Source of the DNA: Eubacteriales bacterium
GTDB lineage: Bacteria; Bacillota; Clostridia; Oscillospirales; CAG-272
Length of the DNA: 40,589 nt
Assembly: GCA_045533845.1 (NCBI GenBank)
Contig: JAZSIN010000028.1
Location: 1-40,589 of the forward strand
Reading direction: 5' to 3'
This document shows, piece after piece, positions 7,372 to 40,589 of the stretch (position 1 is its first letter; each line of letters begins with the position of its first letter). The position numbers and the translations under genes were made by a program. The notes beneath the pieces are model-generated. The model made no database searches. It was given only the letters and a program-made list of their open reading frames with translations, and was not told the DNA's origin.

Positions 7372-7423
7372 ACACACCTCCGAAAACAGCAAGATCGTAC
7401 TAAAAAAGTGCAAAAATTTTGGA

Positions 7424-17942: not shown

Positions 17943-17960
17943 TCCTTTTCAGCGAAACAA

Positions 17961-17994
17961 AGCCGGTCGGCTCCCCTGTCGACCGGCTTTTTAC
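17961..17994 (+). terminator. Rho-independent terminator after hom
   Basis: AAGCCGGTCG-loop-CGACCGGCTT followed by TTTT. Confidence 0.7.
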
Positions 17995-18049
17995 GGAATC
18001 CCCCTCTCTCCTCCCCGAATCAAAATACACACGAAAATAAGGAGTTCGA

Positions 18050-25018: not shown

Positions 25019-27331
25019 TTGAATTTCCCGATCCTGAAGTATAATCGAACCCGTGCCCGACTGATTGCGGTCACGGTCATTTGTCTCGTCGCGGCTCTTG
25101 CCTTCGAGCTTCTTTTTGCGAATTTTAATCTCTTTTTCCGTTTTGATAAGACGAACGAGGAGCGCGCGCTCCTCCCCTATCACAGCGGCGCGTTTGCGAA
25201 AGAGGACGGGCGTTTCGTTTTACCTCCGTCGAACTCGGGCACGGGCGTCCTCTATTTTGAGAACGTTCCGGGCGGGATCTCGTCGATCACCTTTGACATC
25301 CGCTACACCGACAAGTCCGTGAAGGACATCCTTCCCGCGCCGAGCGTCACCGTCACGGCGACCGATCCGCGCACGACCTGGTCGGGCGGCGGCTTTATCA
25401 CCGTTATAACCGAAACCTTCGCAGTAGGAGAAAACGGACGCTACGAATCGGTAGCCCTGTATCCGTCGATCGTAAACGACGCGAGCGGGGATCTGCGTCT
25501 GTCCTTCTCGAACCTCAAGGGCATCGTCGAGCTGCAAAACGTAAGGATCAACGTTCCACCCGCATTCTCGTTCTCCCTTCTCCGCTTTGCGGTGGTTTTT
25601 CTCCTTCTTCTAACCCCTGCCTTCCTTTCGATCAGAGGGCTCTTCTTCGGCGTCTACGATCCGTCGAGCAGGGCGCACCGCTACGGCGTAAAAACCGCCG
25701 TACTCTTCACACTTCTCCTTTCTCTTTTCTTCGTATCGGCATTTCTGAATAAAAACGAGGCGATCCCCTACCCGCTTGAGGGTGCGGTGCGCTACTATCA
25801 GCCCTACGTTCAGCAGTTTGATGCGCTGATGAAGGGACAGCTTCACCTTGACGTGCCCGTCTCCGACGAGCTTCTCGCGCTTGAAAACCCCTACGATTAT
25901 CTTTCCCGCGTTGATGCCGATCCCCTCTGGGACCGCGCCTTTTTCGAAGGAAAATATTACTCGTATTTCGGAGTCACGCCCCTTCTCGTCGTCTACTTCC
26001 CCTATTATCTCCTGACGGGTGCGCTCCCGTCCGACGCCTTCGTCCTTTCGTTCTTTCTCTTCATCACGGCGGTCTTTATCCCGCTCTGCGTCTTGAAGTG
26101 GGTCGACCTGCACGAAAAGCGCCGTCTCCCACTCTCGGTCGTATACCTCGGTGCAATCACCGCCTTCGTCGGCTCAATGATGCTTCTGATCGCGCGCAGT
26201 GTGACGCCCTTCTATTATATTGCAACGCTTTCCGCAAACGCCTTCCTCTCGATCTTCCTTTACCTCATTCTGAAGGCGGTCGAATGCAAGCGGCTTCGTG
26301 ACCGCGCCATTCTGTACGCGCTTGCGGGTCTTGCCTATGCGCTCGTGCTCCATTCCCGTCTGAACGTCGCGCTTCTCGGTGCGTTTATCGTGATCCCCTA
26401 CCTCATCTTCCGCGTGCTGAAGCGGAGAGAGTCCGAGGACGCGGCAGAAGCGTCAGAGGACACGGTAGAAACGTCAGAGGGCACGGTAGAAACGTCAGAG
26501 GGCACGGCAGAAATCGAGGGCACGCGCCCCGGGCGGCGAGAAGCCGTCCCCTCGCGTCTTTTGAGATCTCTGTCGCGTCTCCGCTCGTTCTTCGCGCCCT
26601 TGCGGGAGCTTCTCATCTCTTCCCTTGCGCTCGGGCTTCCCGTGCTCGTCGGACTGATCGCACTTCTCTCGCTAAATCACCTGCGCTTCGGTTCGATCCT
26701 TGAGTTCGGAACCTCCTATCAACTGACTGTCAGCGACGTCCGCTACAATGTGGTCACCCTCAGCGATCTCTTCCCCGCAGTCTACCATTATTTCTTCCAG
26801 GATCTTGAAACGTCGGCATTCTTCCCCTTCTTCTCGATCGGGCGGGAGTCCTTGTCGGATTACGGTCGGTACGTCTATACCGACTCGAGCTTCGGACTCT
26901 TCTCACTCCCCCTCTTCTGTTCCCTTTTTGCCTCCCCCGCGCTCCTGTTCCTGAAGGACCGGACACGCTACGAAAAGCTATTGCTCATCTTTCTGATCCT
27001 TGGACTGTTCACGGTCGCCCTCTTCAACTTCTCGCTCGGCGGAGTCATCTTCCGCTACGTTGCCGATCTTACGCTTCTCGCGTCTCTCGGCTCGGTCTTC
27101 CTGTGCTTCGCGCTTCTCTCGGACGCACCGCCCGCCAAAGGGGACGGCATTGACGGGGGACTTTCTGCTGTAGACAGAACGAAAAAACGTGCTCTTACCG
27201 TAGCCGTTCTCCTTTTCTTCGTGGCTTCCTGTACGGTCGCGCTCCTGCTGTCGATCTCTTATAACGGAAATCTCACGAAATACGCGTCGGGAGTCTTTAT
27301 CTCGGTCAAGCGCTTCTTCTCTCACGGATAA
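25019..27331 (+). CDS. large polytopic membrane protein (possible GT-C/ArnT-like glycosyltransferase), TTG start
   Basis: 770 aa. The TTG start is preceded by GGAAGGAG at an 8-nt spacing. There are at least 12 hydrophobic segments, an extracytoplasmic segment after TM1, and the loop motif NPYDY...WDRAFFEGKYYSYFGVTP. The functional call is tentative. Confidence 0.55.
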   Translation: MNFPILKYNRTRARLIAVTVICLVAALAFELLFANFNLFFRFDKTNEERALLPYHSGAFAKEDGRFVLPPSNSGTGVLYFENVPGGISSITFDIRYTDKSVKDILPAPSVTVTATDPRTTWSGGGFITVITETFAVGENGRYESVALYPSIVNDASGDLRLSFSNLKGIVELQNVRINVPPAFSFSLLRFAVVFLLLLTPAFLSIRGLFFGVYDPSSRAHRYGVKTAVLFTLLLSLFFVSAFLNKNEAIPYPLEGAVRYYQPYVQQFDALMKGQLHLDVPVSDELLALENPYDYLSRVDADPLWDRAFFEGKYYSYFGVTPLLVVYFPYYLLTGALPSDAFVLSFFLFITAVFIPLCVLKWVDLHEKRRLPLSVVYLGAITAFVGSMMLLIARSVTPFYYIATLSANAFLSIFLYLILKAVECKRLRDRAILYALAGLAYALVLHSRLNVALLGAFIVIPYLIFRVLKRRESEDAAEASEDTVETSEGTVETSEGTAEIEGTRPGRREAVPSRLLRSLSRLRSFFAPLRELLISSLALGLPVLVGLIALLSLNHLRFGSILEFGTSYQLTVSDVRYNVVTLSDLFPAVYHYFFQDLETSAFFPFFSIGRESLSDYGRYVYTDSSFGLFSLPLFCSLFASPALLFLKDRTRYEKLLLIFLILGLFTVALFNFSLGGVIFRYVADLTLLASLGSVFLCFALLSDAPPAKGDGIDGGLSAVDRTKKRALTVAVLLFFVASCTVALLLSISYNGNLTKYASGVFISVKRFFSHG
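26444..26524 (+). repeat. in-frame 21-bp tandem repeat (about 3.9 units, encoding AEASEDT/VETSEGT/VETSEGT/AEIEGT)
   Basis: gcagaagcgtcagaggacacg / gtagaaacgtcagagggcacg / gtagaaacgtcagagggcacg / gcagaaatcgagggcacg. Units 2 and 3 are identical. Confidence 0.85.
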
Positions 27332-27740: not shown

Positions 27741-28463
27741 ATGGATACTATTCGTCTTCAAAAAAAGGGAAAAACACTCCTCGTCGCGCATCGCGGCTGC
27801 AGCGGACTCGAAAAGGAAAACACAATGGCTTCATTCATCGCGGCAGGAAATCGCTCCTACTACGGCATCGAGACCGACATTCACAGAACGAGGGACGGTA
27901 AATATATCGTCATTCACGACAGCTCGACTGCACGCGTGGCAGGAAAGGATCTCACGGTCGAGGAGACCGACTACGACGTACTCCGTTCGCTTCCCCTCTG
28001 CGACATCGCGGGAAATTTCGGCCGCATCGATCTCCGTATGCCCGATCTCTCCGAATATATCTCGGTCTGCAAGCATTACGGGAAATACGCGGTGCTTGAA
28101 CTCAAGAACGCCTTTGCGGAGGAGGATATCTACGAGATCTGCGCAATCATCGACGGGCTTGGCTATCTCGACAGAACGATCTTTATCTCCTTCTGCTTTG
28201 AAAATCTCGTTTTTCTCCGCAAAAAATATCCGACGCAGGCGGCACAGTTCCTCACGAAGAAATTCACGGACGATCTCCTCGACCGCCTCAAGGCGTATGG
28301 CCTCGACCTCGATATCCACTATAAGGCTCTTGACAGCGAAAGGATCGCGCTTTGCCACGAGAACGGCATTCTCGTCAACTGCTGGACGGTCAACGACATA
28401 GAAACAGCAGACAGGCTGATCTTGTACGGCATCGATTTTATCACGACGAACATTCTTGAGTGA
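27741..28463 (+). CDS. glycerophosphodiester phosphodiesterase family protein
   Basis: 240 aa. VAHRGCSGLEKENTMASF...GIETDIHRTRDGKYIVIHD is the GDPD catalytic signature (HRG...EN...E.D...HD). Confidence 0.88.
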   Translation: MDTIRLQKKGKTLLVAHRGCSGLEKENTMASFIAAGNRSYYGIETDIHRTRDGKYIVIHDSSTARVAGKDLTVEETDYDVLRSLPLCDIAGNFGRIDLRMPDLSEYISVCKHYGKYAVLELKNAFAEEDIYEICAIIDGLGYLDRTIFISFCFENLVFLRKKYPTQAAQFLTKKFTDDLLDRLKAYGLDLDIHYKALDSERIALCHENGILVNCWTVNDIETADRLILYGIDFITTNILE

Positions 28464-28494: not shown

Positions 28495-28530
28495 ACACGC
28501 CACCGAACATCGGTGGGGCGTTTCTTTTTC
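28495..28530. terminator. bidirectional terminator between the GDPD gene and the 12-kb operon
   Basis: ACGCCACCG-loop-CGGTGGGGCGT, flanked by GAAAAC on the 5' side and TTCTTTTT on the 3' side. Confidence 0.7.
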
Positions 28531-28548: not shown

Positions 28549-29664
28549 TCAGTTTGCAAGGCCGGAGCTTTCGATACCCTGTACGAGGAACTTCTGTCCC
28601 GCGCAGTAGAGGATCAGGAGCGGTGCAAGCACCATAAGTCCTGCCGTATTGTTGATGACCGTCTTCAGGTCGGGGTTCTCCGAAACGTCAAGAGACATCG
28701 TGATCGGGACCTGAATGACGTCGTCCATAAACAGACTCTTATTCGTCGGGTTGAAGGACTGCGTGTAGAAGTTATCCGTCCACTGCCAGCAGAATGCAAA
28801 GATGAAGACCGTGATCATCATCGGGATCGACAGAGGAAGAATGATCTGTAAGAAGGTACGGAAGGTACCCGAGCCGTCCATGTACGCCGACTCCTCGAGC
28901 TCATCCGGAACACCGTGGTAGAACTGACGAAGCATAAAGATATACAGGCCGTTCTTGAACGCGAGGCCGGTGAGGGAGAGGAGATAGATCGGAATATCGG
29001 TTCCGAGGAGGTTGATGCCGTTCTTCGTAAACATCTGGAAGGCCTCGGAGTCGGGGAAGATATCGATCATCTCGAAGAAGCTGTTGTTGATCGTCGTGAT
29101 GCCGAACAGGTTGATGCCGCCTCCGTTCAGGAACTGGAAGATCCCCAGCACGTCGAAGGAGGAGAAGTTGATGTACATCGAGCTGTACAGCGTCTGGTGC
29201 GGCACGATCATCGTGAAGATAACAGCCATAAAGACGAGCTTATTACCCTTGAACTTGAACTTCGCAAGTCCGTATCCGATCAGACAGCAGATGAAGACCT
29301 GGATCAGCGCCGTGCTTGCTGAAAGGATAAAGGTATTGACGAAGGCCTCAAGGTAGCCGTTCTGCATCCAGACTTCCTTATAGATCCTGACGTTCCAATG
29401 CTTCGGGATCAGCATAACCGTGGGGTCTGCCAGGTCGTCGAGGCTCATGAAGGATCTCATCAGCATCGTAAGGAAGGGGGAAAGGATTACGTACGTAATA
29501 CCGATCAGAAGGACGAGACGGAAGATAAACCATACGACCTTCTTCAGGAAGAAAAGGCTGAGGAATTTCGACATCAGACGCTCTTTCAGAGGCGTTCTGT
29601 CGAATTCAATACGAATCTTATTTTTCGTTTCCTTTTTTACCTTAGGCATGGATTCTTGATTCAT
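28549..29664 (-). CDS. carbohydrate ABC transporter permease (enlarged, 371 aa; last gene of the operon)
   Basis: The EAA loop reads EESAYMDGSGTFRTFLQIILPLSIP. There are six or more TM segments, a basic ~35-aa N-terminal extension, and an enlarged extracytoplasmic loop. RBS GGAAAGGAGG. Confidence 0.88.
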   Translation of the reverse strand: MNQESMPKVKKETKNKIRIEFDRTPLKERLMSKFLSLFFLKKVVWFIFRLVLLIGITYVILSPFLTMLMRSFMSLDDLADPTVMLIPKHWNVRIYKEVWMQNGYLEAFVNTFILSASTALIQVFICCLIGYGLAKFKFKGNKLVFMAVIFTMIVPHQTLYSSMYINFSSFDVLGIFQFLNGGGINLFGITTINNSFFEMIDIFPDSEAFQMFTKNGINLLGTDIPIYLLSLTGLAFKNGLYIFMLRQFYHGVPDELEESAYMDGSGTFRTFLQIILPLSIPMMITVFIFAFCWQWTDNFYTQSFNPTNKSLFMDDVIQVPITMSLDVSENPDLKTVINNTAGLMVLAPLLILYCAGQKFLVQGIESSGLAN

Positions 29665-29682
29665 ATTCTTTTCCTCCTTTCC

Positions 29683-30648
29683 TTAAGCATCCTTCTTCTG
29701 ATAGAAGACGAAGCCGCTAAGCAGAAGTGCTACGATTCCGATGATACCGATAACGATCGATACGTAGATCCAGCCCATTGCTGCGGATACACCGTCGGTC
29801 GGAAGCGCACTGTAATTCAGCACGTAATCCATGACGACGTTGTTGACTGTAAAGCTATCGATGACGGTATAGACCGCGTTAACGAGGATCATCGGCGAGA
29901 TCATAGGCAGGGTGATCTTCCAGAAGGTCTCCCAAGAGGTCGCACCGTCGATCTGACACGATTCGTAGATCGCGGGAGAGATCGACTGCAGACCGGTAAG
30001 GAAGATCAGGAACTGAACACCCGAGCGGCTGATGATCTCCTGAACGCTGTTGATCGCGCTGACGACGATGTCTACGAGCTGTTCGCCGATCTTCATGCTC
30101 GAGAAGAGCATCTGAAGGTCGAATGCGGATACCAGCTCGTTCGTCGCGTTCTCGCCCGAGCCGTCCGAGATACCGTCGGCACCGGGGTCGAAGTTCGGGT
30201 CGAGATTCTCAAGAATACCGACCGAAAGAACGACGGGGATGAAGAAGACTGCGCGGAAGAAGGTTCTTCCGACCATCTTCTGGTTCAGAATGACCGCCAT
30301 AAAGAGCGAGAAGATAACGATCATCGGGATATTCAGCGCAAGCGTCCTAAGACCCGTGATCAGAGTGGGAACGAAGTTTACGTCCTTAAACAGTGCTGCC
30401 TGATAGTTTTCGAATCCAACGAACGTGGATTCAAACACACCGTTTCCGAGAGGCTCGACCACACAGAAGGTGTAGGTGATCGAGTCAACGAGGATCGGCA
30501 GATAGATCAGGATAAAGCCAATGATGAACGGGGCTACGAACCACCATCCCGAGCGCGCCTTCCGGGCGTTCAGGGAAGAAGCCCTTTTCTTCTTCTTCCC
30601 CGCCTTCGGAGCAACAGTGGTATTTTGAAGATTCATTTCACTGGTCAT
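29683..30648 (-). CDS. sugar ABC transporter permease (MalF/LplB-like)
   Basis: 321 aa. The EAA loop reads YESCQIDGATSWETFWKITLPMISP. Its ATG overlaps the stop of the upstream 1572-aa gene by 11 nt. Confidence 0.88.
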   Translation of the reverse strand: MTSEMNLQNTTVAPKAGKKKKRASSLNARKARSGWWFVAPFIIGFILIYLPILVDSITYTFCVVEPLGNGVFESTFVGFENYQAALFKDVNFVPTLITGLRTLALNIPMIVIFSLFMAVILNQKMVGRTFFRAVFFIPVVLSVGILENLDPNFDPGADGISDGSGENATNELVSAFDLQMLFSSMKIGEQLVDIVVSAINSVQEIISRSGVQFLIFLTGLQSISPAIYESCQIDGATSWETFWKITLPMISPMILVNAVYTVIDSFTVNNVVMDYVLNYSALPTDGVSAAMGWIYVSIVIGIIGIVALLLSGFVFYQKKDA

Positions 30649-33600
30649 TGTCTTCTACCTCACTTTCCGCCGCAGGAATCTTCTGATAGCTCTGAGATTC
30701 CACGCGGTAAGAAACTCCGTCGATCTCCACCACGACTGCGTAGTTGCAGTAATTCAAGAGGAATCTGGTTCCGTTCGAATAGGTTACAACAACGATGCTG
30801 TTCTTATCAGCACTATACTTGTTATAAACCTCTTCCTCTTCCTCAAGGACCTCGTCCTCCTCCTTCTCTACGATCTCGTCGTAGCGGTAAAGGAGCTCGG
30901 TGAACTTGGGAGCAACGTCAAGCAGACGCTCATCCTCCTCTGCGAGGCTGTTGACCTCTTCGATCGCCGCGAGGTATCTCTTGACCTCATCAAGCGCGAT
31001 CGCCTTTTCGTATGCAGCCTCTGCAAGGGTGACGACCTTTTCGGCGTCATCGACGACTGCCTCGTAGTTTTCCTTGGTGTACTGAGCGTACGCCTCGGCA
31101 GCTGCGAGAGCGGCCTGACGCTCTATATAACCCTCCTCGCCCTCGGCAATGGGCTGCTTCTGCAGCGTCTCATAGACCGAAGCCGCGGTGTTCATTGCCA
31201 GTTCGAGAACGTTCTTGTGCTTCTGTGCATTCTTCGCGTAAGCGTTGATGCCGGTCGAGGAATCACTCGGAACGATCGCGTAGAGGCTAGAGAGCGTATC
31301 AAAGGTTGCGGAGAGTGCTTCAGCTGCCGCCGCAAGTGCGTTCAGCTGTGCCGCAGAGGGTGTCTCTGCGTTGAAGCAAGCTGCAAATGCCGACGAGAAG
31401 CCTACCGCCTGTTCAGTGAACTCGGGCGTGTTCTCGTAGAACGTAATGATCGTGTTCGTCGACTGAGGCGATGCCTCGAAGAGGTCGCCGAAGTAGCCGA
31501 ACTCGGTGTTGAGAAGAATCGCCGCGTTCATCAGAGGCGTGAGCGCTGCAGAGAGCTCTGCGGAGGTCGCCTTCTTTGCCTTGTAGCGCGTGTAGATCTC
31601 CTGGTAGGTCGTCCAACGCTCCGCGAAGGTGTTGTAACGCCCGTTGAAGCCGACCTGGTTCTTCTTATTTAAGTAGGAGTTGAAGATCTCTGCGTACTTC
31701 GGTTCCTCGGTCACAGCCTGAATACCAAGCGTATTGAGGATCTGATCGAGTGCCGCCTTTGCGGTGAGGTCGTTCTTTTCAAGACCGATCTCGTAGGCAC
31801 GGAGCACATTCTTCGTCTCGAACTTAACGGTAGGCTGTACGGTGAGATAACCGCACGCCGCGTAGAGATAGAACTGATATGCGCTGATCTCACAAACTGC
31901 GTTGCCCTTCGCGTCGGTCAGCGTTGCATTTCCGTTGACGGTGTACTCGTATGCGCCCTGTGCCATTTCATAGACACTCGGTGCGATCGAACCGATGGTT
32001 GCGACTGCCTCAGCCGTATCCTCGATCAGACCCCATGCGAGCTCACGGATATACTCCGAAACGCCGTCGGTGGTTGCGAGGATCTCGTAAGCTGCGATCG
32101 CATTCTCATATGCAGTACGAGCTGCAAGCTCGGAACTGTACGCCTGATGTGCGATGTAGTTGACCGAGCCGTTCTGTGCCTGGTCGAAGAACTTCTGAAG
32201 CTCTGCCGCAGCGGAGTTGAGGGATCGTGCCGCATCACCGAGGATGGAAGACGTGCCCGTAATCTCGTTCGCGCCGCAGTCGCCGCCGTTGTAGACCTTG
32301 ATGTAGTTCTGAACGGCCTTGTTGAAGTTCTGGATCGCCTCTCTAAGCTCGCCGCTCTTATATTCCCCGCCCTCGGTGTAACCGAGCTTCAGGATCATAG
32401 CGGTCTTATAGCCCTCGAGCTTCGAAATCTCTGCCTTTACGGCAGCGCTGTTGATGCGGATCAGCTGACGCGCATTCAGAATGGTCTGAATGTTTTCGAG
32501 TGCCTGAAGGTTCAATGCCTCGCGCTCTGCCTCGATCGACTCAAGGATCGCTGCGTCGAGGTCTCTGATCGCCTCGTCAAGATCGGGCACACGAAGTGCA
32601 TCAATGAATTCGTGGTTTACGATCGTTTCAAGCTGAACGTCCGAGAGGAGCGAATTCAGCTCGTTGTAAGTCGAAACGACGTCGTCGAACCAGATATCGT
32701 AGCGGATCGAATAGTACTGGCTGAGTCTCTGATGGTTCTTCAGCGTGGTCGTATTCTGATACGACAGGAGGAAGTTGATGGACGCGCCATTCTCGATCGC
32801 CTTCAGGAAGGCGTAGTTCAGGTTACCCTCCATATTGATGGGAGTGCCTGCGAACTGCACGTAGCCGTGGAGCACGATTCCCATGAACGGAACCGATGCG
32901 CTCGATCTGATGAAACGGCTCGAGTCGAGCGGAACGTCGAGAATGTAATCGACGTACTTCCAGGTATACGCGTTACCACCGCTCGTCATTACGTAATCGT
33001 AATTCTCGTCGAAGTAACGGAATGCCTTGATGGTATGCGACTTCGAGTCCTCGCGGTTGTACGGATCTTCCTCGTCAAAGTCCGAGTTAAGCTCAGAGCC
33101 CAGCGTTCCGACCGAGATCGAGGTCTTGTAGTCGGTATCCTTGAAGTGCTTCATGTAGTTCGTAGTCAGCTTCGTGTAGAAGTGCTCGTAATATGCCGGA
33201 GAGAGGCAGAGCTCGAAGTAGCTGACAAACGCCTGCTTCGTCGCAGAATATTCACGACGGCTGGTATAACGGTTATCGATACTCTTTACAACGTGCTTAC
33301 GAAGCGAGAGTCCATCGACCATACCCGTTTCGGATACGAAGACGAAATCGAAGTCCGGGAATACCTTATAGCCCTTCTCGTTTGCATCCTTGAGAAGCTC
33401 GTTAAAGCCCTTCTTGCCGCCGACTGCCTTTTCCCAATCGAGCTTATACGGAACGGTCGACGACATACCGCCGTTCGAGTAGCCGGTCAGCTTGAAGTTT
33501 ACATTCGTAATGCCGATGTTTGCAAGATCCGCGTACATCTTCGAAACGTCGTCAAACGAGGTGAGTGCGACGGTTACGTCAACGGGGATCGACATGATCT

Positions 33601-35356
33601 TCTGCGTCGTATCGACCGCACCGAAGGTGTTGATGTAAAGCGGGATATCCTCCTCGACGTCCTCCTCGGTAAGAGGCGTCAGGACCTCGATGGATTCGAG
33701 GTAATCGCGGTATGCCGAAGCCATACCCATGTAGGTGCACTCGTAGTAGTCGAAGGTCTGACCCTCGCCCATGTCGTGCTGGATCTGCTCTGCGACATCG
33801 TCGTCGGTCAGCATCACGTACTTAATGGTATAGTTTCCGGTATACTTTCTCGAGGAAACGACCTCCCACATAGCGCCACTGCTGTTCGACGTGGAGGAGA
33901 TTGCATCCTTCAGGTTGTAGGTGTCCTTCGGACGCGGGAAGTAGGTCATCTGGACCGAGTGATACTCGTGCGTCGTCTTACCGCCGTGCGAGCTGGTAAG
34001 CTTCGCCATCGAGTCACCCTCCGTGATGATCGCAACGAAGCCGCGATCCTGCTCATATTCACGGACCGTCTGGTCGGGAGCAAGCTTGGTCAGATGCTGC
34101 GTCTCGACGATACCGAATACGGGATAACGAATGGTTTCCTGGTGGGTTGCCGTAATGGTCTGGTACGCGTAGTCAACGCCGTATACCTGACCGCTGATGC
34201 TGGTCGAGGAAAGCTTACGCAGCTCCTCGAAATCAAACAGCGCACCCGATCCGTCCGGGAAGAAGGTATAGCCCTCGTTCGGGGACATACCCGATCCCAT
34301 ATAGGGGAGGACGGTGATGTTTTCGAGCGTGTAACGGGACTCGTCGAAGCGGAGACCGTTTGCGGGAAGCGTTACGCTCAGACCTTCACTACCGAGGATA
34401 TACTCGAGCGCCATCTTGAAGAGCGGAGGATTCTGCTCCTCGCCCTCGTATTCGGTGAGCTCGTGGTCATAATCCAGATCCTCGTAGGTGTACGAGGGAA
34501 TGTAGGTCTTGATAAGCATCTCGAGTGCCGCAAGCTGTACCGAGGTGATCTTTTCGTCGATGGCGTATACGTCCATCTTCTTTACGATCGGAAGCGTTGC
34601 GACCATCGAGTCGTAAATGACGTCGGTGTCGGCCATATCAAGGTCGTACAGCACGTACCACTTGATGACCTTATTGATCTTCAGCTTGCCGACCTCACCC
34701 TCGGACTTGAGGGCTTCCTCGATAACTGCCTTGATCTTGGTCTCGAAACGGGTTCTCTCGATCAGTCTCGGAACGAGCATCTTCGCTTCCTCTCGGCCGA
34801 TGGTATACTCGACACGGAGACCGTTCTTGATGTTCTTAACCTTGATCTGACCTCTCAGAGAGGTCTCCTCGAAGCTTGAGAAGGTCGTCGTAACACCGGT
34901 GGACTTATCGGTGTATTCGACGAGGATCTGGGACATCAGCTGGCTGAGCTGCTTACCCTTTGCCGTCGAGGCTCCAATGTTATAGGGGTTCGTAAAGAGG
35001 ATCTCCTCGGTGGTGAGGTTCTTACAAGCCACCTCGCCCGAGTACTCGTCGACGTAGAGCTGATAGCCGTTCTGCTGGAGACGAAGGTCCATCGTCGCGA
35101 GCTTCTCGGACGGCGTATCGAATACGTCAGCCTCAAGCCATTCAAGGTCCTTGTTTACGAAATAGTTTACGGTAGCATCGGCAGGATCCGCGCTACTGAT
35201 GGTGTAATAGGTATACGACACCTTCTCGGCAACCGTGCCGGAGGTGGGCGTATCCGTTGTTCCTGTGGACGCATCCGCCGCAGCGATCGTCACCGAGCAC
35301 GCACTGATCACAAACAATACGGCCAGGAACATTGATATTATTCTGCTGAATTTCAT
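30638..35356 (-). CDS. 1572-aa surface lipoprotein: DUF5696-like putative glycan-processing N-terminal part plus a long Ala-rich alpha-helical C-terminal region
   Basis: Signal peptide plus lipobox (MKFSRIISMFLAVLFVISAC). RBS GGAGGAAAGGG. Residues ~40-925 have a globular composition, with segments YPVFGIV...GFVAIITEGD, GITNVNFKLTGYSNGGM and VPFMGIVLHGY that I recall from DUF5696-type proteins. Residues ~930-1500 are Ala/Glu/Leu/Tyr-rich and predicted helical. The last ~55 aa are beta-like. Confidence 0.85.
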   Translation of the reverse strand: MKFSRIISMFLAVLFVISACSVTIAAADASTGTTDTPTSGTVAEKVSYTYYTISSADPADATVNYFVNKDLEWLEADVFDTPSEKLATMDLRLQQNGYQLYVDEYSGEVACKNLTTEEILFTNPYNIGASTAKGKQLSQLMSQILVEYTDKSTGVTTTFSSFEETSLRGQIKVKNIKNGLRVEYTIGREEAKMLVPRLIERTRFETKIKAVIEEALKSEGEVGKLKINKVIKWYVLYDLDMADTDVIYDSMVATLPIVKKMDVYAIDEKITSVQLAALEMLIKTYIPSYTYEDLDYDHELTEYEGEEQNPPLFKMALEYILGSEGLSVTLPANGLRFDESRYTLENITVLPYMGSGMSPNEGYTFFPDGSGALFDFEELRKLSSTSISGQVYGVDYAYQTITATHQETIRYPVFGIVETQHLTKLAPDQTVREYEQDRGFVAIITEGDSMAKLTSSHGGKTTHEYHSVQMTYFPRPKDTYNLKDAISSTSNSSGAMWEVVSSRKYTGNYTIKYVMLTDDDVAEQIQHDMGEGQTFDYYECTYMGMASAYRDYLESIEVLTPLTEEDVEEDIPLYINTFGAVDTTQKIMSIPVDVTVALTSFDDVSKMYADLANIGITNVNFKLTGYSNGGMSSTVPYKLDWEKAVGGKKGFNELLKDANEKGYKVFPDFDFVFVSETGMVDGLSLRKHVVKSIDNRYTSRREYSATKQAFVSYFELCLSPAYYEHFYTKLTTNYMKHFKDTDYKTSISVGTLGSELNSDFDEEDPYNREDSKSHTIKAFRYFDENYDYVMTSGGNAYTWKYVDYILDVPLDSSRFIRSSASVPFMGIVLHGYVQFAGTPINMEGNLNYAFLKAIENGASINFLLSYQNTTTLKNHQRLSQYYSIRYDIWFDDVVSTYNELNSLLSDVQLETIVNHEFIDALRVPDLDEAIRDLDAAILESIEAEREALNLQALENIQTILNARQLIRINSAAVKAEISKLEGYKTAMILKLGYTEGGEYKSGELREAIQNFNKAVQNYIKVYNGGDCGANEITGTSSILGDAARSLNSAAAELQKFFDQAQNGSVNYIAHQAYSSELAARTAYENAIAAYEILATTDGVSEYIRELAWGLIEDTAEAVATIGSIAPSVYEMAQGAYEYTVNGNATLTDAKGNAVCEISAYQFYLYAACGYLTVQPTVKFETKNVLRAYEIGLEKNDLTAKAALDQILNTLGIQAVTEEPKYAEIFNSYLNKKNQVGFNGRYNTFAERWTTYQEIYTRYKAKKATSAELSAALTPLMNAAILLNTEFGYFGDLFEASPQSTNTIITFYENTPEFTEQAVGFSSAFAACFNAETPSAAQLNALAAAAEALSATFDTLSSLYAIVPSDSSTGINAYAKNAQKHKNVLELAMNTAASVYETLQKQPIAEGEEGYIERQAALAAAEAYAQYTKENYEAVVDDAEKVVTLAEAAYEKAIALDEVKRYLAAIEEVNSLAEEDERLLDVAPKFTELLYRYDEIVEKEEDEVLEEEEEVYNKYSADKNSIVVVTYSNGTRFLLNYCNYAVVVEIDGVSYRVESQSYQKIPAAESEVEDNDQ

Positions 35357-35380
35357 AATATTTCCCTTTCCTCCGGTTTG

Positions 35381-37516
35381 TTACATACGATAGCTGACTT
35401 CGGTGATGATATTGGAAACAAGACCGATGACCTTACTGAGAAGCGTCGTGAACAGGAGCGCAATGAACATAATGAAGACCATTGCGGCAAGCGTTCCGAT
35501 GATCGTCAGAACGTTCTTTCCGAGCGAGTAATCGTGAATCGTCATGACGCCGAAGAAGAGCAGCATTCCGACCCAGATAAACGCGACGGTAATGAGCATA
35601 TTGATCATATCGATCTCTGCCTTCAGCGCTACATTCGAGAAAATCGTCGAAAGAACGATGAAGAGCGGAAGCGGTGCGAGCGAGTACGAGGTCGCAATGA
35701 AGATATCCTTCATATTACCCTCGCCCTCGAACAGTGTGGTAAGGCACCAGTTGCCGATGACGAACAGGGCGAGCGGGAGAAGAACACCCGTGATCTGTGC
35801 CATAAAGGACGAATAGGTCTCTCTCGGATTACTGATGTAGCCGGTTCCGATATTCTGATAGTAGAAAGCAAGGATCGTAATACCGATATAGACGAGTGAC
35901 GCCCGTATCGATCCGCGTTTTTCGTGCTTCATATCCCAGTATCCGTCGAACGGATGGAACATCGTATGGAAGCAGAAAAGCACTTCCTCCTTGAAGGTAC
36001 GCTTTCCGGCAGTGACTGCCGCCTTCGCGTTGACCTTGTTTGCGTACTTCATAACGACCACGAGGATCACGATCGCCGCAACCACGATAACGGGAAGCAG
36101 GAGGATCCAATCAGCGATCCACTGCTTACGGATCTCCTGATAGGATTTCGAGTAGTTCGAGGTATCGTATGCTGCTCTGAAATATGCGAGGGAGTCCTCA
36201 AATGCACCGTCACGGTACAGCGCGTTACCGATTCCGACGTATGCCGCGTCGAAGTTCGAGTTACGCTTCAGAATCTCCGTCCAGTCCGCGATCGCATCGT
36301 CGTAAAGCTGCGCGTTCTGGTTTTTGATCGCCTCGATCAGAATATCTCCGTACTCGGTTCTTTCGTACACCGTAATGGTTGCATTCGATTTGTCGAGCAC
36401 GAGGAAGGTATCACCCTGATAGACCACCGACGTGATACTCATAAGGCTACCGATCTGCTGACCGGTGTCGCCGAATGCGTACAGCAGGTTGCCGTTGAAA
36501 TCGTAGGTAAAGATTTTATTTCGTTTGGAGTCTGCGATCGTCCAGGTCTTTTCGGGACCGACCGCAACGTCGATGACGGTTGAGGGACCGCTGATCGCGT
36601 CAGCTGAGTGTGCTCTCGTCATATCGACTTCACCCGCCGGAGGCCAGAAGCCGTTACGCTTCATGATCTCATCGCCCTTTGCATTCAAAAGCTTTACGGG
36701 CGAGTACTTACCGCTGCTTGACTTACTGCGGATAAAGGACTGGACGTCCTCCTCCTTGATGTAAGACGTGGTCGCGTACACGAAGCCGTCGGGCGTGACT
36801 GCGATGTTGTTGTAGGAGACCGAGACGTTCAGAACGCTCTGCGATCTCTGCTCGTCGGTCTGGAAGCGACGGATCAGGATCTGCCAGAAGGAGAGCGAGA
36901 CCGCCTGTGCACCGATGAAGCCGGTAAAGGTACCGTCATCGGTCATAACGATGATACCTTGATAGGTATCACGCGATACGACGAAGAGTCTGTCGTACTT
37001 ATCGACCGCGATCGCAATCGGCGAGTAGATCGCATCCTCATCGAAAAGCGAGCTCTCGGGAGCGGGGATGACCGAGCGGAAGTTACCCTCGAGGTCGAAG
37101 GTGACGATTCTGCCCGCGTCGGTATCGCAGACGTAGATGGTATCCTCGGTGACGTAAAGTCCCTGAGGGGAGGAGAGCTCATCCGGAACGCCATCCTCGT
37201 TGACAAAGGTCTCGATCAGGAATTTTACCTTTCCATATCGGTCGTTTACAACGATTCGGTTGTTCGCTCTGTCCGCGATGTAGATGTTCATATCCGCATC
37301 GACGACGAGGTCGGTCGGTGCATTCATCGGCACCAAAAGTCCCATCGTATCCGAATCCATTACCTTGATCGGGGTATATGCATCCGGGGAATACAGCGGC
37401 GTGCCGCTGATCGAATACGTATAGGTCTGATACGGGGAAGCTGCGCTTGCGGGGACAATGAGCACGCCCGCCATCAGTACGACTGCAAACAGGAGCGCAA
37501 ATATTTTCTTTTTCAT
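35381..37516 (-). CDS. secreted NHL-repeat beta-propeller / TPR-like / Yip1-domain polytopic membrane fusion protein
   Basis: 711 aa with signal peptide MKKKIFALLFAVVLMAGVLIVPASA. NHL-type blades include IYIADRANNRIVV, IYVCDTDAGRIVTFD and LFVVSRD. A TPR-like segment reads YDDAIADWTEILKRNSNFDAAYVGIGNALYRDGAFEDSLAYF. A TM helix follows, then a 5-TM Yip1-like C-terminal domain. Confidence 0.85.
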   Translation of the reverse strand: MKKKIFALLFAVVLMAGVLIVPASAASPYQTYTYSISGTPLYSPDAYTPIKVMDSDTMGLLVPMNAPTDLVVDADMNIYIADRANNRIVVNDRYGKVKFLIETFVNEDGVPDELSSPQGLYVTEDTIYVCDTDAGRIVTFDLEGNFRSVIPAPESSLFDEDAIYSPIAIAVDKYDRLFVVSRDTYQGIIVMTDDGTFTGFIGAQAVSLSFWQILIRRFQTDEQRSQSVLNVSVSYNNIAVTPDGFVYATTSYIKEEDVQSFIRSKSSSGKYSPVKLLNAKGDEIMKRNGFWPPAGEVDMTRAHSADAISGPSTVIDVAVGPEKTWTIADSKRNKIFTYDFNGNLLYAFGDTGQQIGSLMSITSVVYQGDTFLVLDKSNATITVYERTEYGDILIEAIKNQNAQLYDDAIADWTEILKRNSNFDAAYVGIGNALYRDGAFEDSLAYFRAAYDTSNYSKSYQEIRKQWIADWILLLPVIVVAAIVILVVVMKYANKVNAKAAVTAGKRTFKEEVLFCFHTMFHPFDGYWDMKHEKRGSIRASLVYIGITILAFYYQNIGTGYISNPRETYSSFMAQITGVLLPLALFVIGNWCLTTLFEGEGNMKDIFIATSYSLAPLPLFIVLSTIFSNVALKAEIDMINMLITVAFIWVGMLLFFGVMTIHDYSLGKNVLTIIGTLAAMVFIMFIALLFTTLLSKVIGLVSNIITEVSYRM

Positions 37517-37535
37517 ATAAATCTTGCCTCCTTTT

Positions 37536-38408
37536 TTAGTCTTTCATACCCGAAGAGCCCATCGTTTCGATGATGTTCGACTGGGAGATGACGAATACCG
37601 CAATCGGCACGAGCATCATAATAACCGTGGATGCCGCGTGAGCACCTGCACGCTTGATACCGCCTGCCATGATCTGACCAATCGCGTAGTTGAACGACTT
37701 CAGCTGCTCGGAGTGGATGTAAGTCGAAGAGCCTCTGTTCCACAGATCCTCGAAGCAGTAGATGATCAGCGTGAGCCAAGCGGGCTTAACCATCGGCATC
37801 GCGATAATCCAGAAGGTACGGAGCTCACCCGCGCCGTCAAGACGGGCACTTTCAAGGACTGCATTCGTAACGTTGGTGTCCATGAACTGCTTCATCAGGT
37901 AAAGACCAAGCTTATAACCGAGAGCGGGGATGATCAGCGCCCAATAGGTATCGACCATGTGAAGCTTCGACATGATCATGAAGGACGTAATACCCGTAAC
38001 GGTAGAGTGGAACATCAGCGAGGTACGAACGAGCTTAAATGCAAATTTGCGACCCGGGAACTTGATCTTCGAGATCGCGTACGCTGCAAGAGACGCCGAG
38101 AAGAGGTTACCGAAGGTTCCTACGAGCGAGGTCAGTACGGTATTGAAGATGTAACGGGAAAACGGGACCCACGAGGTACTCATCAGAGTAAAGAGGTCGG
38201 TATAGTTTTTACCCGTAGGATTGATAACGTAGAATCGGGGCGGGAACATCCACAGCTCGTCAAGGGGCTTGAAGGACTGGATCACGACGTAGTACATCGG
38301 GAGGAACATGAATGCGCCCAGAATCACAAGGATTATCGAAATCATCGCGTCACCGCCGCGTGAACGGGCGAGGACGACTTTGTGTCTTCTAGTTCTTAAT
38401 TTTGCCAT
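37536..38408 (-). CDS. carbohydrate ABC transporter permease (MalG-like)
   Basis: 290 aa. The EAA loop reads LESARLDGAGELRTFWIIAMPMVKP. There is a 1-nt gap from the upstream permease gene. Confidence 0.9.
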   Translation of the reverse strand: MAKLRTRRHKVVLARSRGGDAMISIILVILGAFMFLPMYYVVIQSFKPLDELWMFPPRFYVINPTGKNYTDLFTLMSTSWVPFSRYIFNTVLTSLVGTFGNLFSASLAAYAISKIKFPGRKFAFKLVRTSLMFHSTVTGITSFMIMSKLHMVDTYWALIIPALGYKLGLYLMKQFMDTNVTNAVLESARLDGAGELRTFWIIAMPMVKPAWLTLIIYCFEDLWNRGSSTYIHSEQLKSFNYAIGQIMAGGIKRAGAHAASTVIMMLVPIAVFVISQSNIIETMGSSGMKD

Positions 38409-38409
38409 A

Positions 38410-39357
38410 TTATCTACCCACCTTAGAAATGACCTTCTTGACGAGCGCGTTCGCGCCGATCATGATAACGAACAGCACGACGGCAATGGTGGAAGAGTAT
38501 CCGATCTCAAATCGTTGTCCGCCGTAGTCCTCCAGATGGTGCATGATCGTATGCGCACAGTAGTTAACCGACGGGAAGCCGCAGAGTGCGGTAACGATTC
38601 CGCCAAAGCCGAAGGAGTTCGTGATTGCCATAATAGCACCGAACATCAGCTGCGGCTTCATCGTAGGAAGGGTGATGTACCAAAGCTCCTGCCAACGGTT
38701 CTTGACACCGTCGACGGCGCCCGCCTCGTAAAGCGAATGGTCGACGCCCTGAAGACCTGCGATAAACGAAAGAAACGCTGTACCGAGCGAGGTCCAAAGG
38801 GATACCACGATACAAAGGGGCATGACATAGTCCTCGTTCTCGAAGAACGCAATCGGTTCTCCGATCATACCCATATTGATCAGCGTCGCGTTGACCCATC
38901 CGTAGGAGTCACTCGAGAAGAGTGTACCCCAGATCAGGTAGACCTGACCTGCGATGGACGGTGCGTAGAAGATCAGCGTAACGAACGAACGGACGAGCGG
39001 TGAAAGCTCGTTGATAAACCATGCAACGAGGAAGGATATCAGATAGGACGCAGGACCTACGACCACTGCGAACATAAAGGTGTTTTTAACACAGATGAGA
39101 AAGATATCGTCGTCGAGGAAGAGACGGATATAGTTTTCAATACCCATCCAGGACGGAGTCTCAAGCAGGTTAAAGTCTGTAAAGCTGAAATAGATGGACA
39201 GCGCGACGGGAACGACGGTAAACAGGGTGAAAACGAGCATAAAGGGTGCGATCATTGCATAACCGACCTTATTGCGCTTCATTTCCTTCCAGATCCATTG
39301 AGCCTTCGTCATGTCCTTTCTGGAAACAGCTTTTTTCTGTTTCACTTTTGTAGGCAT
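38410..39357 (-). CDS. sugar ABC transporter permease (MalF-like)
   Basis: 315 aa. The EAA loop reads YEAGAVDGVKNRWQELWYITLPTMKP. RBS AAGGAG. Confidence 0.9.
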   Translation of the reverse strand: MPTKVKQKKAVSRKDMTKAQWIWKEMKRNKVGYAMIAPFMLVFTLFTVVPVALSIYFSFTDFNLLETPSWMGIENYIRLFLDDDIFLICVKNTFMFAVVVGPASYLISFLVAWFINELSPLVRSFVTLIFYAPSIAGQVYLIWGTLFSSDSYGWVNATLINMGMIGEPIAFFENEDYVMPLCIVVSLWTSLGTAFLSFIAGLQGVDHSLYEAGAVDGVKNRWQELWYITLPTMKPQLMFGAIMAITNSFGFGGIVTALCGFPSVNYCAHTIMHHLEDYGGQRFEIGYSSTIAVVLFVIMIGANALVKKVISKVGR

Positions 39358-39414
39358 ATGCTCTTTATCTCCTTAACTAAATTTTCGAGCGAAGGATTTA
39401 CGGGACCTCCCCAT

Positions 39415-39441
39415 CGGAGCCTCCCTTATGGGAAAGCCCCG
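39415..39441 (-). promoter_or_regulatory. intercistronic mRNA hairpin between the SBP and permease genes
   Basis: Minus-strand RNA: CGGGGCUUUCC(C)-loop-GGGAGGCUCCG. The stem needs three G-U pairs, so it forms only in the sense transcript. On the plus strand these positions would be A-C mismatches. No U-tract follows. Confidence 0.4.
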
Positions 39442-39499
39442 ACAACGGAGTACACCGTATCGTTATATAATAATGTAACTTATTATGTTTTTCGGTGAC

Positions 39500-40589
39500 T
39501 TATTTGTAAGTCTCGTAAATCTCAAGCGCCGTAGCGGCCTCATTGATATACTCAACGACTTCCTCGAACAGAGTCGCGTTTGCGGTCTTAAGGTCGGAAG
39601 CAAGGGCAAAGAGTGCGGCGTAGTCTTCTTGACTCTTGTAGAGAAGTCCGGTGTCTCCGGCTGCTCTTTCATAGAGGTCGTCATAGCTTGCATTCCAGGA
39701 GCCCGAGCTCTTAAGCTCTGCAAGGGCCTCCTTCGCCTGATCCATACGCTTTTCAGCGAGGGTCTGGTCGAGTGCAAGTGTTTCAAGGTCAAATTCCTCG
39801 CGCTTACGCGTGATCTCCTTATTGATCGTGATGATGTAGGAGAGGAGCTCCTCGGAGGGGTCTGCGGATTTGTTGTACGCTGCAAGGAATGCGAAGTTGG
39901 TGTATCTGCCGATGATGTACGATCCGGGATAGTTCGGGATCGATGCAAGGCTGTTGAACTGTGCCTGGAGCTGCTCAAGCTCGTCGGACGTCCAGGGCAT
40001 ATCCGCAAGCGCGTGGAGATTTGCGGTCGAGTGCTTTGCGGACGGACCGATGATCGCGCACATTTCCTCGGAGTAGGTCGACTGACATTCAGCACCGACG
40101 TGCCACTTCATAAACTGCCAAGCGTTGTACTCGTTCTTGCAGCCGACGATCATAACGATCGCGGAGCAGGAGGAAACTGCCACGTTGTTGATCACGGGGT
40201 TACCGTTTGCATCCATGATCTCATTTCCCTTCGCATCGGTCTCAATGATACCGGGAAGCGGGTAGAAGCTCCAGAGGCCCTCAATCTCGGTCGCGAAGAC
40301 CTTGAGGTGGTTGTAGGTTGCCGTGTAGCTTGCAAAGCCGATCGGCATCTCACCCGTTCTGAATCGGTTCGCGAAGTCGTACTTGTAGGGGAAGCCGTAC
40401 TGCGTGAACAGGTTACACATCATATCGAAGGACTTGAGCGCAATGTTGGAATCGAGGTTGATTCTCATTCCGTTATCGGCGAAAAGCTCGCCGCCCTTCT
40501 GATAGAGGAAGACCTTATAGTCGTTGTGCATACCGATCGCCATGTTGTTCGCCTGAAGCGTCGGGATCGCCGCAAGGACGTCGTCCCAC
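39500..40589 (-). CDS. extracellular solute-binding protein of a carbohydrate ABC transporter (5' end outside window), with a C-terminal helical extension
   Basis: The frame stays open to the window edge (...WDDVLAAIPTLQANNMAIGMHNDY...). SBP family-1-like text includes YKVFLYQKGGELF, LKVFATEIEGLWSFYPLPG and WQFMKWHV. The last ~100 aa are helical and Ala/Glu/Leu-rich. Confidence 0.88.
   Translation of the reverse strand, partial: WDDVLAAIPTLQANNMAIGMHNDYKVFLYQKGGELFADNGMRINLDSNIALKSFDMMCNLFTQYGFPYKYDFANRFRTGEMPIGFASYTATYNHLKVFATEIEGLWSFYPLPGIIETDAKGNEIMDANGNPVINNVAVSSCSAIVMIVGCKNEYNAWQFMKWHVGAECQSTYSEEMCAIIGPSAKHSTANLHALADMPWTSDELEQLQAQFNSLASIPNYPGSYIIGRYTNFAFLAAYNKSADPSEELLSYIITINKEITRKREEFDLETLALDQTLAEKRMDQAKEALAELKSSGSWNASYDDLYERAAGDTGLLYKSQEDYAALFALASDLKTANATLFEEVVEYINEAATALEIYETYK

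Follow-up and report, generated by a model that had tools for sequence, protein, structure and literature searches.

A conserved seven-gene cassette of Bacillota that combines two CUT1-type permease pairs with a giant solute-binding protein, a Yip1 membrane protein, and a DUF5696 protein of predicted glycosidase-like fold

The CUT1 importers (MalEFGK2, UgpBAEC, and MsmEFGK; TC 3.A.1.1), a well-described group of ATP-binding cassette (ABC) transporters for carbohydrates, are the closest known relatives of the system that we analyze here. This system is encoded on the minus strand of a contig from a Eubacteriales bacterium (GenBank assembly GCA_045533845.1, contig JAZSIN010000028.1), and by "the window" we mean the whole analyzed stretch of that contig, 40,589 nucleotides (nt) in length. 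The block of genes that occupies the last 12 kb of the window is the 3' part, six genes and a third of the seventh, of a heptacistronic cassette that is conserved in Bacillota. Its products are a giant solute-binding protein (SBP), a first pair of permeases (P1 and P2), a membrane protein with NHL, TPR, and Yip1 regions, a DUF5696 protein, and a second pair of permeases (P3 and P4). The reading that we favor, and that we regard as reasonably likely, is that the cassette is one co-inherited system that captures, cleaves, and imports a glycan by way of two CUT1-type ABC translocons.

With the CUT1 importers the cassette shares a family 1 SBP fold and MalF/MalG-like heterodimers with EAA loops. 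A MalK-type ATPase with OB/TOBE domains heads the operon at three loci (L087-L089, two from Paenibacillus and one from Neobacillus; annotated as UgpC in L087, and with ABC_tran, OB_MalK, and TOBE_2 in L088 and L089) and is absent from the locus elsewhere, as in systems that share MsmX. Unlike the CUT1 importers, however, the cassette has two permease pairs of ancient divergence (~25% identity) within a single fixed operon, its SBP runs to 990-1320 amino acids (aa) with carbohydrate-binding module 35 (CBM35)-like and helical modules, an NHL/TPR/Yip1 protein and a putative glycosidase-like protein are encoded between the two pairs, and the second MalG-like subunit is systematically enlarged. Gram-positive polysaccharide-utilization loci (PULs) and the alginate "pit" importer of Sphingomonas A1 (AlgM1M2SS-AlgQ1/Q2) likewise co-encode an extracellular glycan-active protein, a CBM, and an ABC importer. 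The mosaic, variable composition of the Gram-positive PULs contrasts with the rigidity of the seven-gene cassette, which in the window's clade has neither an adjacent regulator nor a further carbohydrate-active enzyme (CAZyme); we know of no Yip1/NHL component or dual translocon described for these PULs or for the pit importer. We regard the cassette as a new system of the CUT1 or Gram-positive PUL type with a fixed dual-translocon, Yip1, and glycoside hydrolase (GH)-like architecture, the permeases and SBP domain of which have CUT1 features, as does the ATPase of L087-L089. An earlier note on this DNA knew of no characterized system with such an architecture, and none was found in the incomplete library of literature that we searched. 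Nor did that library yield a paper on DUF5696 or DUF6259, on Yip1/NHL proteins in a sugar ABC operon, or anything relevant on links between GH129 and DUF families or on CBM-fused SBPs, which is absence of evidence only.

The conservation of the cassette carries our argument. Open reading frames (ORFs) were called in 85 related loci and assigned by BLASTP to the seven reference proteins: the set is complete in 63, a contig end truncates 22, and the order SBP, P1, P2, NHL/Yip1, DUF5696, P3, P4 is violated in none. The median intergenic gaps in these loci are 41, 1, 16, 23, 18, and 15 nt. When one genome is counted per GTDB species, 473 species, all of them uncultured gut or rumen Clostridia, Eubacteriales, or Oscillospiraceae, encode a close relative of the DUF5696 protein. 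The flanks differ even among the close loci, with SufCD or a proton-antiporter gene upstream and enolase, AlaRS, AddAB, or YgjP downstream.

The same order is kept in eight distant loci. A tblastn search of plasmids with the DUF5696 core yielded two cultured organisms at 23-25% identity, and a further homology search seeded with the Paenibacillus protein was followed by six context look-ups, each of which returned the same order. The eight loci belong to Butyrivibrio fibrisolvens (plasmid pNP243), Paenibacillus cellulosilyticus, a second Paenibacillus (L088, the protein cluster of which is named for P. mucilaginosus), Neobacillus kokaensis, Cohnella luojiensis, and three metagenome-assembled genomes; their DUF5696 proteins are 19-25% identical to that of the window, except in one metagenome-assembled genome (L093, 44%). 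The cultured carriers include B. fibrisolvens D1, P. cellulosilyticus KACC 14175, C. luojiensis, and N. kokaensis. On pNP243 of strain D1, a divergent histidine kinase and response regulator lie upstream of the cassette, which reads GH43, a 977-aa SBP, two permeases, an NHL protein of 498 aa, a YIP1 protein of 206 aa, a DUF5696 protein of 839 aa, two further permeases, and two ordinary SBPs. In P. cellulosilyticus, a UgpC/MalK-type ATPase is followed by a 986-aa SBP, two permeases, a fused YIP1 protein of 719 aa, a DUF5696 protein of 757 aa, and again two permeases. The accessions of the DUF5696 proteins are WP_073386913.1 for strain D1 and WP_110042929.1 for P. cellulosilyticus. An extra SBP of ordinary size stands directly beside the cassette in five of the eight distant loci. 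The CAZymes that flank distant cassettes differ (GH43; GH26/GH113/GH9; GH30/GH35; GH2/GH38), and regulators, either LacI or a histidine kinase with a response regulator, are present in L086, L090, and L091.

Conserved synteny, on which the earlier note had itself staked its proposal, is found in all 85 related and all 8 distant loci, which come from both Clostridia and Bacilli, and the DUF5696, Yip1, and four permease genes co-occur across Clostridia and Paenibacillus, as that note had asked. A fortuitous junction is therefore rejected, given zero violations of order in the 85 close and 8 distant loci. The same data bear on the alternative that the operon loosely co-regulates two independent CUT1 importers and a secreted enzyme, with the Yip1/NHL protein in some unrelated role at the envelope. 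Each part does come from a common family, several ABC systems are often found in one Gram-positive sugar locus, additional SBPs are present in some lineages, and P3P4 evolve as a separate module (see below). From Bacilli to Clostridia, however, no gene of the cassette is lost, moved, or inverted at any of the 93 loci while the flanks differ completely, and operons that are merely co-regulated are normally shuffled over such distances. Moreover, every DUF5696 gene whose neighborhood we examined (93 loci) sits inside the seven-gene cassette, and NHL and Yip1 switch between fused and split forms yet stay adjacent. We consider loose co-regulation rather unlikely.

The anatomy of the block in the window is summarized in the table. 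All seven co-directional minus-strand ORFs of the earlier note were recovered at the same coordinates, the recomputed spacings are identical (142, 1, 19, and 24 nt, an 11-nt overlap, and 18 nt), and Pfam and NCBIfam reproduce its domain calls and gene order. The overlap of 11 nt is between the start of P3 and the stop of the DUF5696 gene, and the gap of 1 nt separates P1 from P2. The single terminator that had been assigned to the block corresponds to a bidirectional terminator-like hairpin, which closes the operon and is common to it and the convergent GDPD gene at 27741-28463. Within the block, sequences that resemble promoters or terminators are no more frequent than expected from shuffled sequence. 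The description of the block as holding one SBP and two giant accessory proteins holds for the one SBP but not for the count of giants, which is three, since the truncated SBP is itself expected to have ~1214 aa when complete.

Table. Features of the cassette in the window, with the coordinates of split NHL/Yip1 genes in distant loci
Feature	Position	Strand	Remarks
Giant SBP, C-terminal 362 residues	39500..40589	-	SBP_bac_8; gene cut by contig end
Spacer between SBP and permease genes	39358..39499	-	strong GC-rich hairpin, no U-tract
Permease P1, 315 aa, UgpA/MalF-like, first translocon	38410..39357	-	BPD_transp_1; UgpA 2e-16
Permease P2, 290 aa, UgpE/MalG-like, first translocon	37536..38408	-	BPD_transp_1; UgpE 6e-21
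NHL/TPR/Yip1 membrane protein, 711 aa	35381..37516	-	Yip1 53.6 bits, NHL 42.7 bits, TPR_16
DUF5696 protein, 1572 aa, secreted or membrane-tethered	30638..35356	-	DUF5696 E=3e-134
DUF5696 core, residues 292-918	32603..34483	-	beta-sandwich then (beta/alpha)8 barrel, predicted GH-like fold
Ala/Glu-rich helical region of DUF5696 protein, residues ~926-1500	30857..32581	-	length-hypervariable insertion
C-terminal beta mini-domain of DUF5696 protein, residues ~1503-1557	30686..30850	-	aligned motif
Permease P3, 321 aa, UgpA/MalF-like, second translocon	29683..30648	-	BPD_transp_1; UgpA 2e-15
Permease P4, 371 aa, enlarged UgpE/MalG-like, second translocon	28549..29664	-	BPD_transp_1; MalG, UgpE, GlcU matches
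Bidirectional intrinsic-terminator-like hairpin	28500..28516	both	7-bp stem, 5 GC pairs, T-rich tails
Split NHL/Yip1 genes	L086 9246-11341; L090 7916-9986; L091 7814-9984; L092 2986-5133		

All four permeases carry BPD_transp_1 in Pfam, and their best NCBIfam matches are of the UgpA or UgpE type. The EAA loop that the earlier note placed in each of them was recovered in all four (EAGAVDG at 211 in P1, ESARLDG at 186 in P2, ESCQIDG at 229 in P3, and ESAYMDG at 258 in P4) and is kept among the related loci in 71/71 P1, 73/73 P2, 80/81 P3, and 76/76 P4 sequences. It is through these loops that such permeases couple to an ATPase. The CUT1 hallmark of a MalF/UgpA plus MalG/UgpE heterodimer with EAA loops is thus present twice over. 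The identity of P1 to the first permease is 54% in the Butyrivibrio cassette and 44% in that of Paenibacillus; the corresponding values for P3 and the third permease are 38% and 34%, against only 25% between P3 and P1. By BLASTP, the four permeases of Butyrivibrio and Paenibacillus match P1 to P4 position by position at 27-57% identity (35-57% for the first pair to P1 and P2, 27-38% for the second pair to P3 and P4, and ~24% across pairs). Since each permease matches its positional counterpart, both pairs are ancestral, and these comparisons indicate that the association of the two pairs with the Yip1/NHL protein and DUF5696 predates the split between the cassettes of Bacilli and those of Clostridia. 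A recent duplication of one permease pair was considered and rejected, because identity is only ~25% between P1 and P3 and between P2 and P4, lower than that of each permease to the Bacilli orthologue at its own position.

The enlargement of P4 is equally consistent. At each of the eight distant loci, the P4 orthologue exceeds the accompanying P2 in length (314-353 versus 267-305 aa), and in the close loci the range of P4 (341-413 aa) lies almost wholly above that of P2 (219-329 aa). Judged by hydropathy and the position of the EAA loop, the extra residues would fall in the outward-facing loops between transmembrane (TM) helices TM3-TM4 and TM5-TM6. There is no transporter-type ATPase within the window, in agreement with the earlier note. 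The only ABC ATPase there, at 18050-19654 (+), was rejected as the missing ATPase; its two ABC_tran domains and ABC_tran_Xtn make up an ABC-F architecture.

The SBP gene runs off the contig, its reading frame being open up to base 40589, and the fragment of 362 residues is 83% identical to residues 853-1214 of a 1214-aa homologue (L006:2216-5857). The open frame and this match to the C terminus of a homologue indicate that the contig cuts off ~70% of a third giant protein. In the fragment, the rear lobe of an SBP domain of the CUT1 type is followed by a helical tail; the full-length protein of the window is expected, from its homologues, to have ~1214 aa with N-terminal beta-sandwich and CBM35-like modules and a helical bundle. 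Full-length homologues (990-1320 aa) match SBP_bac_8 and SBP_bac_1 and have their SBP domain at about residues 595-1036, and the best match of the profile in the PDB is Lin1841 (E=5e-12). A structure model of the giant SBP (predicted local distance difference test [pLDDT] 83.5) begins with two beta-rich regions, continues with a four-helix bundle and a CUT1 oligosaccharide-SBP fold, and ends in a helical tail. Foldseek with the full model retrieved oligosaccharide SBPs at target-normalized TM-scores of 0.7-0.8 and returned the SBP domain only; the first beta domain (residues ~65-300) had no match. The second beta region is CBM35-like: of 30 N-terminal regions from homologues, 17 match CBM_35 (best E=3.5e-8), and CITase (5x7g) has a CBM35 that matches at E=2e-6. 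This part of the protein lies beyond the end of the window and was read in homologues. NCBIfam has no named family for either the giant SBP or DUF5696.

In the 1572-aa protein, the DUF5696 match (PF18952) scores 449.3 bits against a cut-off of 25.6 and spans residues 292-918; there are more than 1289 homologues among the matches listed, and a full HMMER scan places the family in 3984 clusters at 50% identity. Residues 1-989 were modeled with AlphaFold2 from 76 sequences, and the model reached a pLDDT of 77 and a predicted TM-score of 0.72. The best Foldseek match of this model is full-length GH129 (ZgGH129, 5opq, E=1.4e-25), with NagBb (5wzp/5wzn) at E ~1e-16 to 1e-18 (5wzp at 8e-18) and target-normalized TM-scores of 0.63-0.68, followed by GH101 (~1e-10), GH31, and GH36; the overall range is E=1e-25 to 1e-9. 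GH129, GH101, GH31, and GH36 are families of retaining glycosidases, and they include the alpha-N-acetylgalactosaminidase NagBb and the 3,6-anhydro-D-galactosidase ZgGH129 of GH129 and the endo-alpha-GalNAc-ases of GH101. The predicted fold of DUF5696 matches theirs overall, with an N-terminal beta-sandwich, a (beta/alpha)8 barrel, and C-terminal beta strands in common. It differs from them in showing ~10% sequence identity and no HMM-level link, in being always encoded within an ABC cassette, and in having, in the window's clade, a hypervariable helical insertion of up to ~1000 aa. The relationship to GH129, as modeled, is visible at the level of the fold alone. Because DUF5696 has the beta-sandwich and (beta/alpha)8 barrel of GH129/GH101 but lacks the sequence signature of membership, we do not file it in those families and propose it instead as a candidate new GH family on the strength of the model.

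An alignment of the family, in which most of the distant members are 19-25% identical to the window protein, reveals invariant P367, G369, and G371 (a PDGSG motif), D395 (YGxD395), E855, and H915, with D368 and D759 in at least 90% of sequences. The conserved acids (D368, D395, D759, and E855) would suit an enzyme. The helix that follows the core runs from residue 926 to the end of the AlphaFold2 model, and among homologues this insertion varies from ~0 to ~1000 aa and the protein from 969 to 2016 aa. A profile search of the PDB gave nothing but coiled-coil noise for this region. The insertion is lacking from L063, L067, and L086-L092, and the longest genes (1850-2017 aa) are those of L036-L043, L049, L054, L057, L061, and others. 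In the short homologues, the H915 segment leads straight into conserved C-terminal beta strands that correspond to residues ~1503-1557 of the window protein. This mini-domain, with the motif V.VTY.NG....VNYN, is aligned across the family: residues 1503-1549 of the window protein match the C termini of P0020, P0024, and P0089 and residues 803-835 of the Butyrivibrio protein. The lengths of DUF5696 and SBP are weakly correlated over 63 loci (Spearman 0.39, p=0.002, uncorrected for phylogeny), which hints at a shared length constraint such as the thickness of the envelope. The designation of the 1572-aa protein as a lipoprotein, made in the earlier note, is doubtful; the putative lipobox Cys is absent from most homologues, which have SPase-I-like or uncleaved-anchor N termini instead.

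A second, distantly similar protein is encoded in the window outside the cassette. The 668-aa product of 11251-13257 (-) matches DUF6259 (E=9e-21) and, weakly, DUF5696 (E=3e-4), and has no signal peptide and no relative by sequence in the PDB. Its gene is divergent from that of an AraC-type regulator at 13399-14262 (+); an AP_endonuc_2 fusion (sugar isomerase-like) and a GFO_IDH_MocA oxidoreductase are encoded nearby, at 6595-8394 (+) and 8419-9477 (+). The 668-aa protein may act inside the cell as a glycosidase-like enzyme in a related pathway.

The NHL/Yip1 protein is the other accessory component of the cassette. Its hydropathy profile (peaks at 5-23, 471-489, and 570-687) orders it as a signal peptide, an extracellular NHL beta-propeller, a TPR region, a TM helix, and a C-terminal multi-pass Yip1 domain. 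The Yip1 match (PF04893) covers residues 517-684 at 53.6 bits against a cut-off of 28.6, and the multi-pass topology expected of the family is present. Fused in the window, NHL and Yip1 are separate, adjacent, and sometimes overlapping genes in four distant loci, where the split Yip1 gene, as aligned to the window protein, starts shortly past the TM helix that comes after the TPR region. Their occurrence as fused or adjacent genes across lineages is a classic sign of functional linkage. A precedent exists in Bacillus, where YknW modulates the assembly of the YknXYZ ABC transporter complex (PMC4887032). Like the cassette, YknWXYZ of Bacillus subtilis/amyloliquefaciens has a Yip1-family membrane protein encoded within an ABC transporter operon; YknYZ, however, is a MacB-type exporter with a membrane-fusion protein whereas the cassette encodes type I importers, and the NHL propeller and TPR ectodomain of the cassette protein are both lacking from YknW. 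By analogy, and from its fixed position in the operon and its rate covariation (below), the NHL/Yip1 protein is a candidate for a YknW-like accessory role.

We aligned the seven proteins from 61 complete loci and correlated their pairwise distances, with the mean of the remaining five proteins removed by regression. Partial r is 0.40-0.49 for SBP with P1, SBP with P2, and P1 with P2, and 0.50 for Yip1 with DUF5696; SBP with DUF5696 (0.36), SBP with Yip1 (0.32), and P2 with Yip1 (0.35) are lower. The strongest coupling is that of P3 with P4 (0.71). SBP shows -0.29 with P3 and 0.02 with P4, DUF5696 shows 0.10-0.11 with P3 and P4 (not significant), and Yip1 with P4 is weak (r = 0.16, p = 0.03). 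These values are suggestive of three rate modules, namely the SBP with the first pair, Yip1 with DUF5696, and the second pair alone, and they agree with the extra ordinary SBPs beside the distant cassettes, which themselves fit a second conventional importer. P1 and P2 are slowest (mean distances 0.25-0.29, with P2 the slowest of the seven), and SBP and DUF5696 are fastest (~0.68-0.69). A receptor and an enzyme that evolve fast, next to CAZymes that differ between loci, fit a conserved transport chassis with changing receptor and enzyme specificity. Because the neighboring CAZymes differ and SBP and DUF5696 evolve much faster than P1P2, the substrate probably differs between lineages.

The rate data also bear on how closely the parts are joined. 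The earlier note had proposed a single multi-component machine rather than two independent importers placed side by side; co-inheritance of the parts is borne out, but one physical machine is not, given that the second pair is separate in rate and that extra SBPs accompany some cassettes. A single physical supercomplex would have the Yip1/NHL protein scaffold both translocons and the DUF5696 enzyme, with P3P4 either fed without an SBP, by the enzyme or the NHL propeller acting on the P4 loops, or else served by the giant SBP along with P1P2. Several observations speak for it: the interleaved gene order is invariant over very deep divergence; the 11-nt DUF5696/P3 overlap and the 1-nt P1/P2 gap point to translational coupling; no second SBP is present in the window or the annotated flanks of L001-L005; P4 is enlarged in predicted outward segments and exceeds its neighbor P2 in every distant locus; Yip1 covaries with DUF5696 and P2 with Yip1, if only weakly with P4; and a Yip1 protein modulates ABC transporter assembly in Bacillus (PMC4887032). 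Against these stand the lack of rate coupling of P3P4 to the SBP, the nonsignificant coupling to DUF5696, and the extra SBPs of ordinary size at five of the eight distant loci. To our knowledge, moreover, no type I ABC importer functions without an SBP or an SBP domain. We judge the supercomplex unlikely. Quite unlikely, in our estimation, is its most specific form, a new class of importer assembly in which a Yip1/NHL scaffold would join a surface glycosidase of a new GH family to two translocons and P3P4, fed by the enzyme or the propeller, would take up a polymer processively and independently of any SBP.

Returning to the reading that we favor, a co-inherited system for glycan capture, cleavage, and import, we start from the anatomy, predicted folds, conservation, and orthology described above and infer from them a division of labor, a tethering, and a class of substrate. 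A membrane-tethered giant SBP would bind a polymeric or large oligomeric glycan through its CBM35-like module and hand fragments to P1P2; that it serves this pair is suggested by the way in which its evolutionary rate tracks theirs. The extracellular DUF5696 enzyme would cleave or trim the captured glycan. The NHL/TPR/Yip1 protein, somewhat in the manner of YknW, would hold or organize this enzyme at the membrane, as their covariation in rate suggests, and perhaps the translocons too. P3P4 would be a second importer for a second product, and the enlarged outward-facing loops of P4 may dock its partner, probably an ordinary SBP of the kind that lies beside the cassette in five of eight distant loci and that would be encoded elsewhere, or be missing, in the window's lineage. 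A shared MsmX/MalK-type ATPase would power both translocons, encoded in trans here and in cis in L087-L089. The suggestion of the earlier note that the system couples transport to the capture or processing of an extracellular polymer gains support from the modeled GH129/GH101/GH31-like fold of DUF5696 and from the CBM35-like module of the SBP.

Read in this way, the cassette would be a widespread and rigid carbohydrate system of rumen and gut Clostridia and soil Paenibacillaceae, which annotation pipelines split into generic "sugar ABC permease" and "hypothetical" calls. The glycosidase-like fold predicted for DUF5696 proposes a candidate new GH family, and for ABC transporter biology the cassette offers a natural case in which two translocons, an oversized CBM-bearing receptor, and a Yip1 accessory are inherited together. 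It is directly testable in cultured Butyrivibrio and Paenibacillaceae hosts.

A number of points weigh against this reading. Among the Pfam families listed for 32 DUF5696 members scanned at E <= 10 there is no GH family, and the core profile matched no PDB chain at that threshold. The invariant acids do not stand obviously at the spacing of the nucleophile and acid/base of GH101/GH129, so that DUF5696 could be a noncatalytic binder or perform a different chemistry. The tethering of both the SBP and the DUF5696 protein is deduced solely from hydrophobic N-terminal segments, and the role of the cassette as a whole is read here from genes, predicted folds, and the comparison of rates. Partial-Mantel covariation is inflated by shared phylogeny, and recombination affecting the 3' end of the operon could likewise explain why P3P4 behave separately. 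In the window's clade, P3P4 are left without a visible partner: neither the window nor the annotated flanks of L001-L005 contain a second SBP, and phmmer with the ordinary SBPs of the distant loci found none in the window or the 85 close loci, a search of low sensitivity that also missed the ordinary SBPs of other loci. Finally, there is no regulator and no other CAZyme within 10 kb of the cassette in L001-L005 and no regulator in the flank of the window, surroundings that are unusual for a polysaccharide-utilization locus.

These bare surroundings invite a further alternative, in which the cassette takes no part in nutrient uptake. It would instead remodel, recycle, or sense a glycopolymer that belongs either to a host or to the envelope of the cell itself, and one of the permease pairs would serve as a sensor or as a channel for recycling. 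The cassette of the window's clade indeed lies among housekeeping genes (SufCD, enolase, AlaRS, and AddAB) without a nearby regulator or CAZyme, the clade is a widespread one that spans 473 species-level genomes, helical insertions of such great length resemble envelope-spanning structures, and a gene of the LytR-CpsA-Psr family, which attaches cell-wall glycopolymers, is present in the window at 2162-3205, though 25 kb away. Distant cassettes, however, adjoin plant-glycan CAZymes and LacI or two-component sugar regulators, the fold of the giant SBP matches SBPs for oligosaccharide uptake, and its CBM35-like module suggests an exogenous polysaccharide. We regard an envelope role of this kind as very improbable and the glycan-import reading as the better account of the cassette.

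The spacer between the SBP and P1 genes contains a feature of its own. Its RNA folds with a dG of -45.4 kcal/mol (z = -3.53), and none of 200 shuffled sequences folded as well. Lacking a U-tract, the hairpin suits an mRNA-stabilizing or attenuating element rather than a terminator, and probably raises the expression of the SBP over that of the permeases; hairpins of this kind do so in other ABC operons. A spacer of ~140 nt is found only in the window's nearest relatives (L005 and L006), the median elsewhere being 41 nt. Rfam detected no riboswitch or leader upstream of the cassette in three homologous loci.

Two long ORFs lie antisense to the DUF5696 and permease genes, at 32147-34879 (+), 910 aa, and 29398-30903 (+), 501 aa. 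As genes they were rejected, their low-complexity Arg/Asp-rich translations being by-products of codon bias in sequence of 52-55% GC. A 770-aa ORF at 25019-27331 (+) of the window has no Pfam match, and L005 (81% identical) has a 765-aa gene, also without a Pfam match, at the corresponding site downstream of the cassette. Elsewhere in the window are genes for a BspA-type leucine-rich-repeat surface protein at 19729-20586 (-) and for the LytR-CpsA-Psr protein, the latter on the plus strand. In L001, a cobalamin riboswitch and a ZMP/ZTP riboswitch, both unrelated to the cassette, lie downstream of it at 17844-18038 and 19190-19271, and the ZMP/ZTP riboswitch precedes purine-biosynthesis genes.

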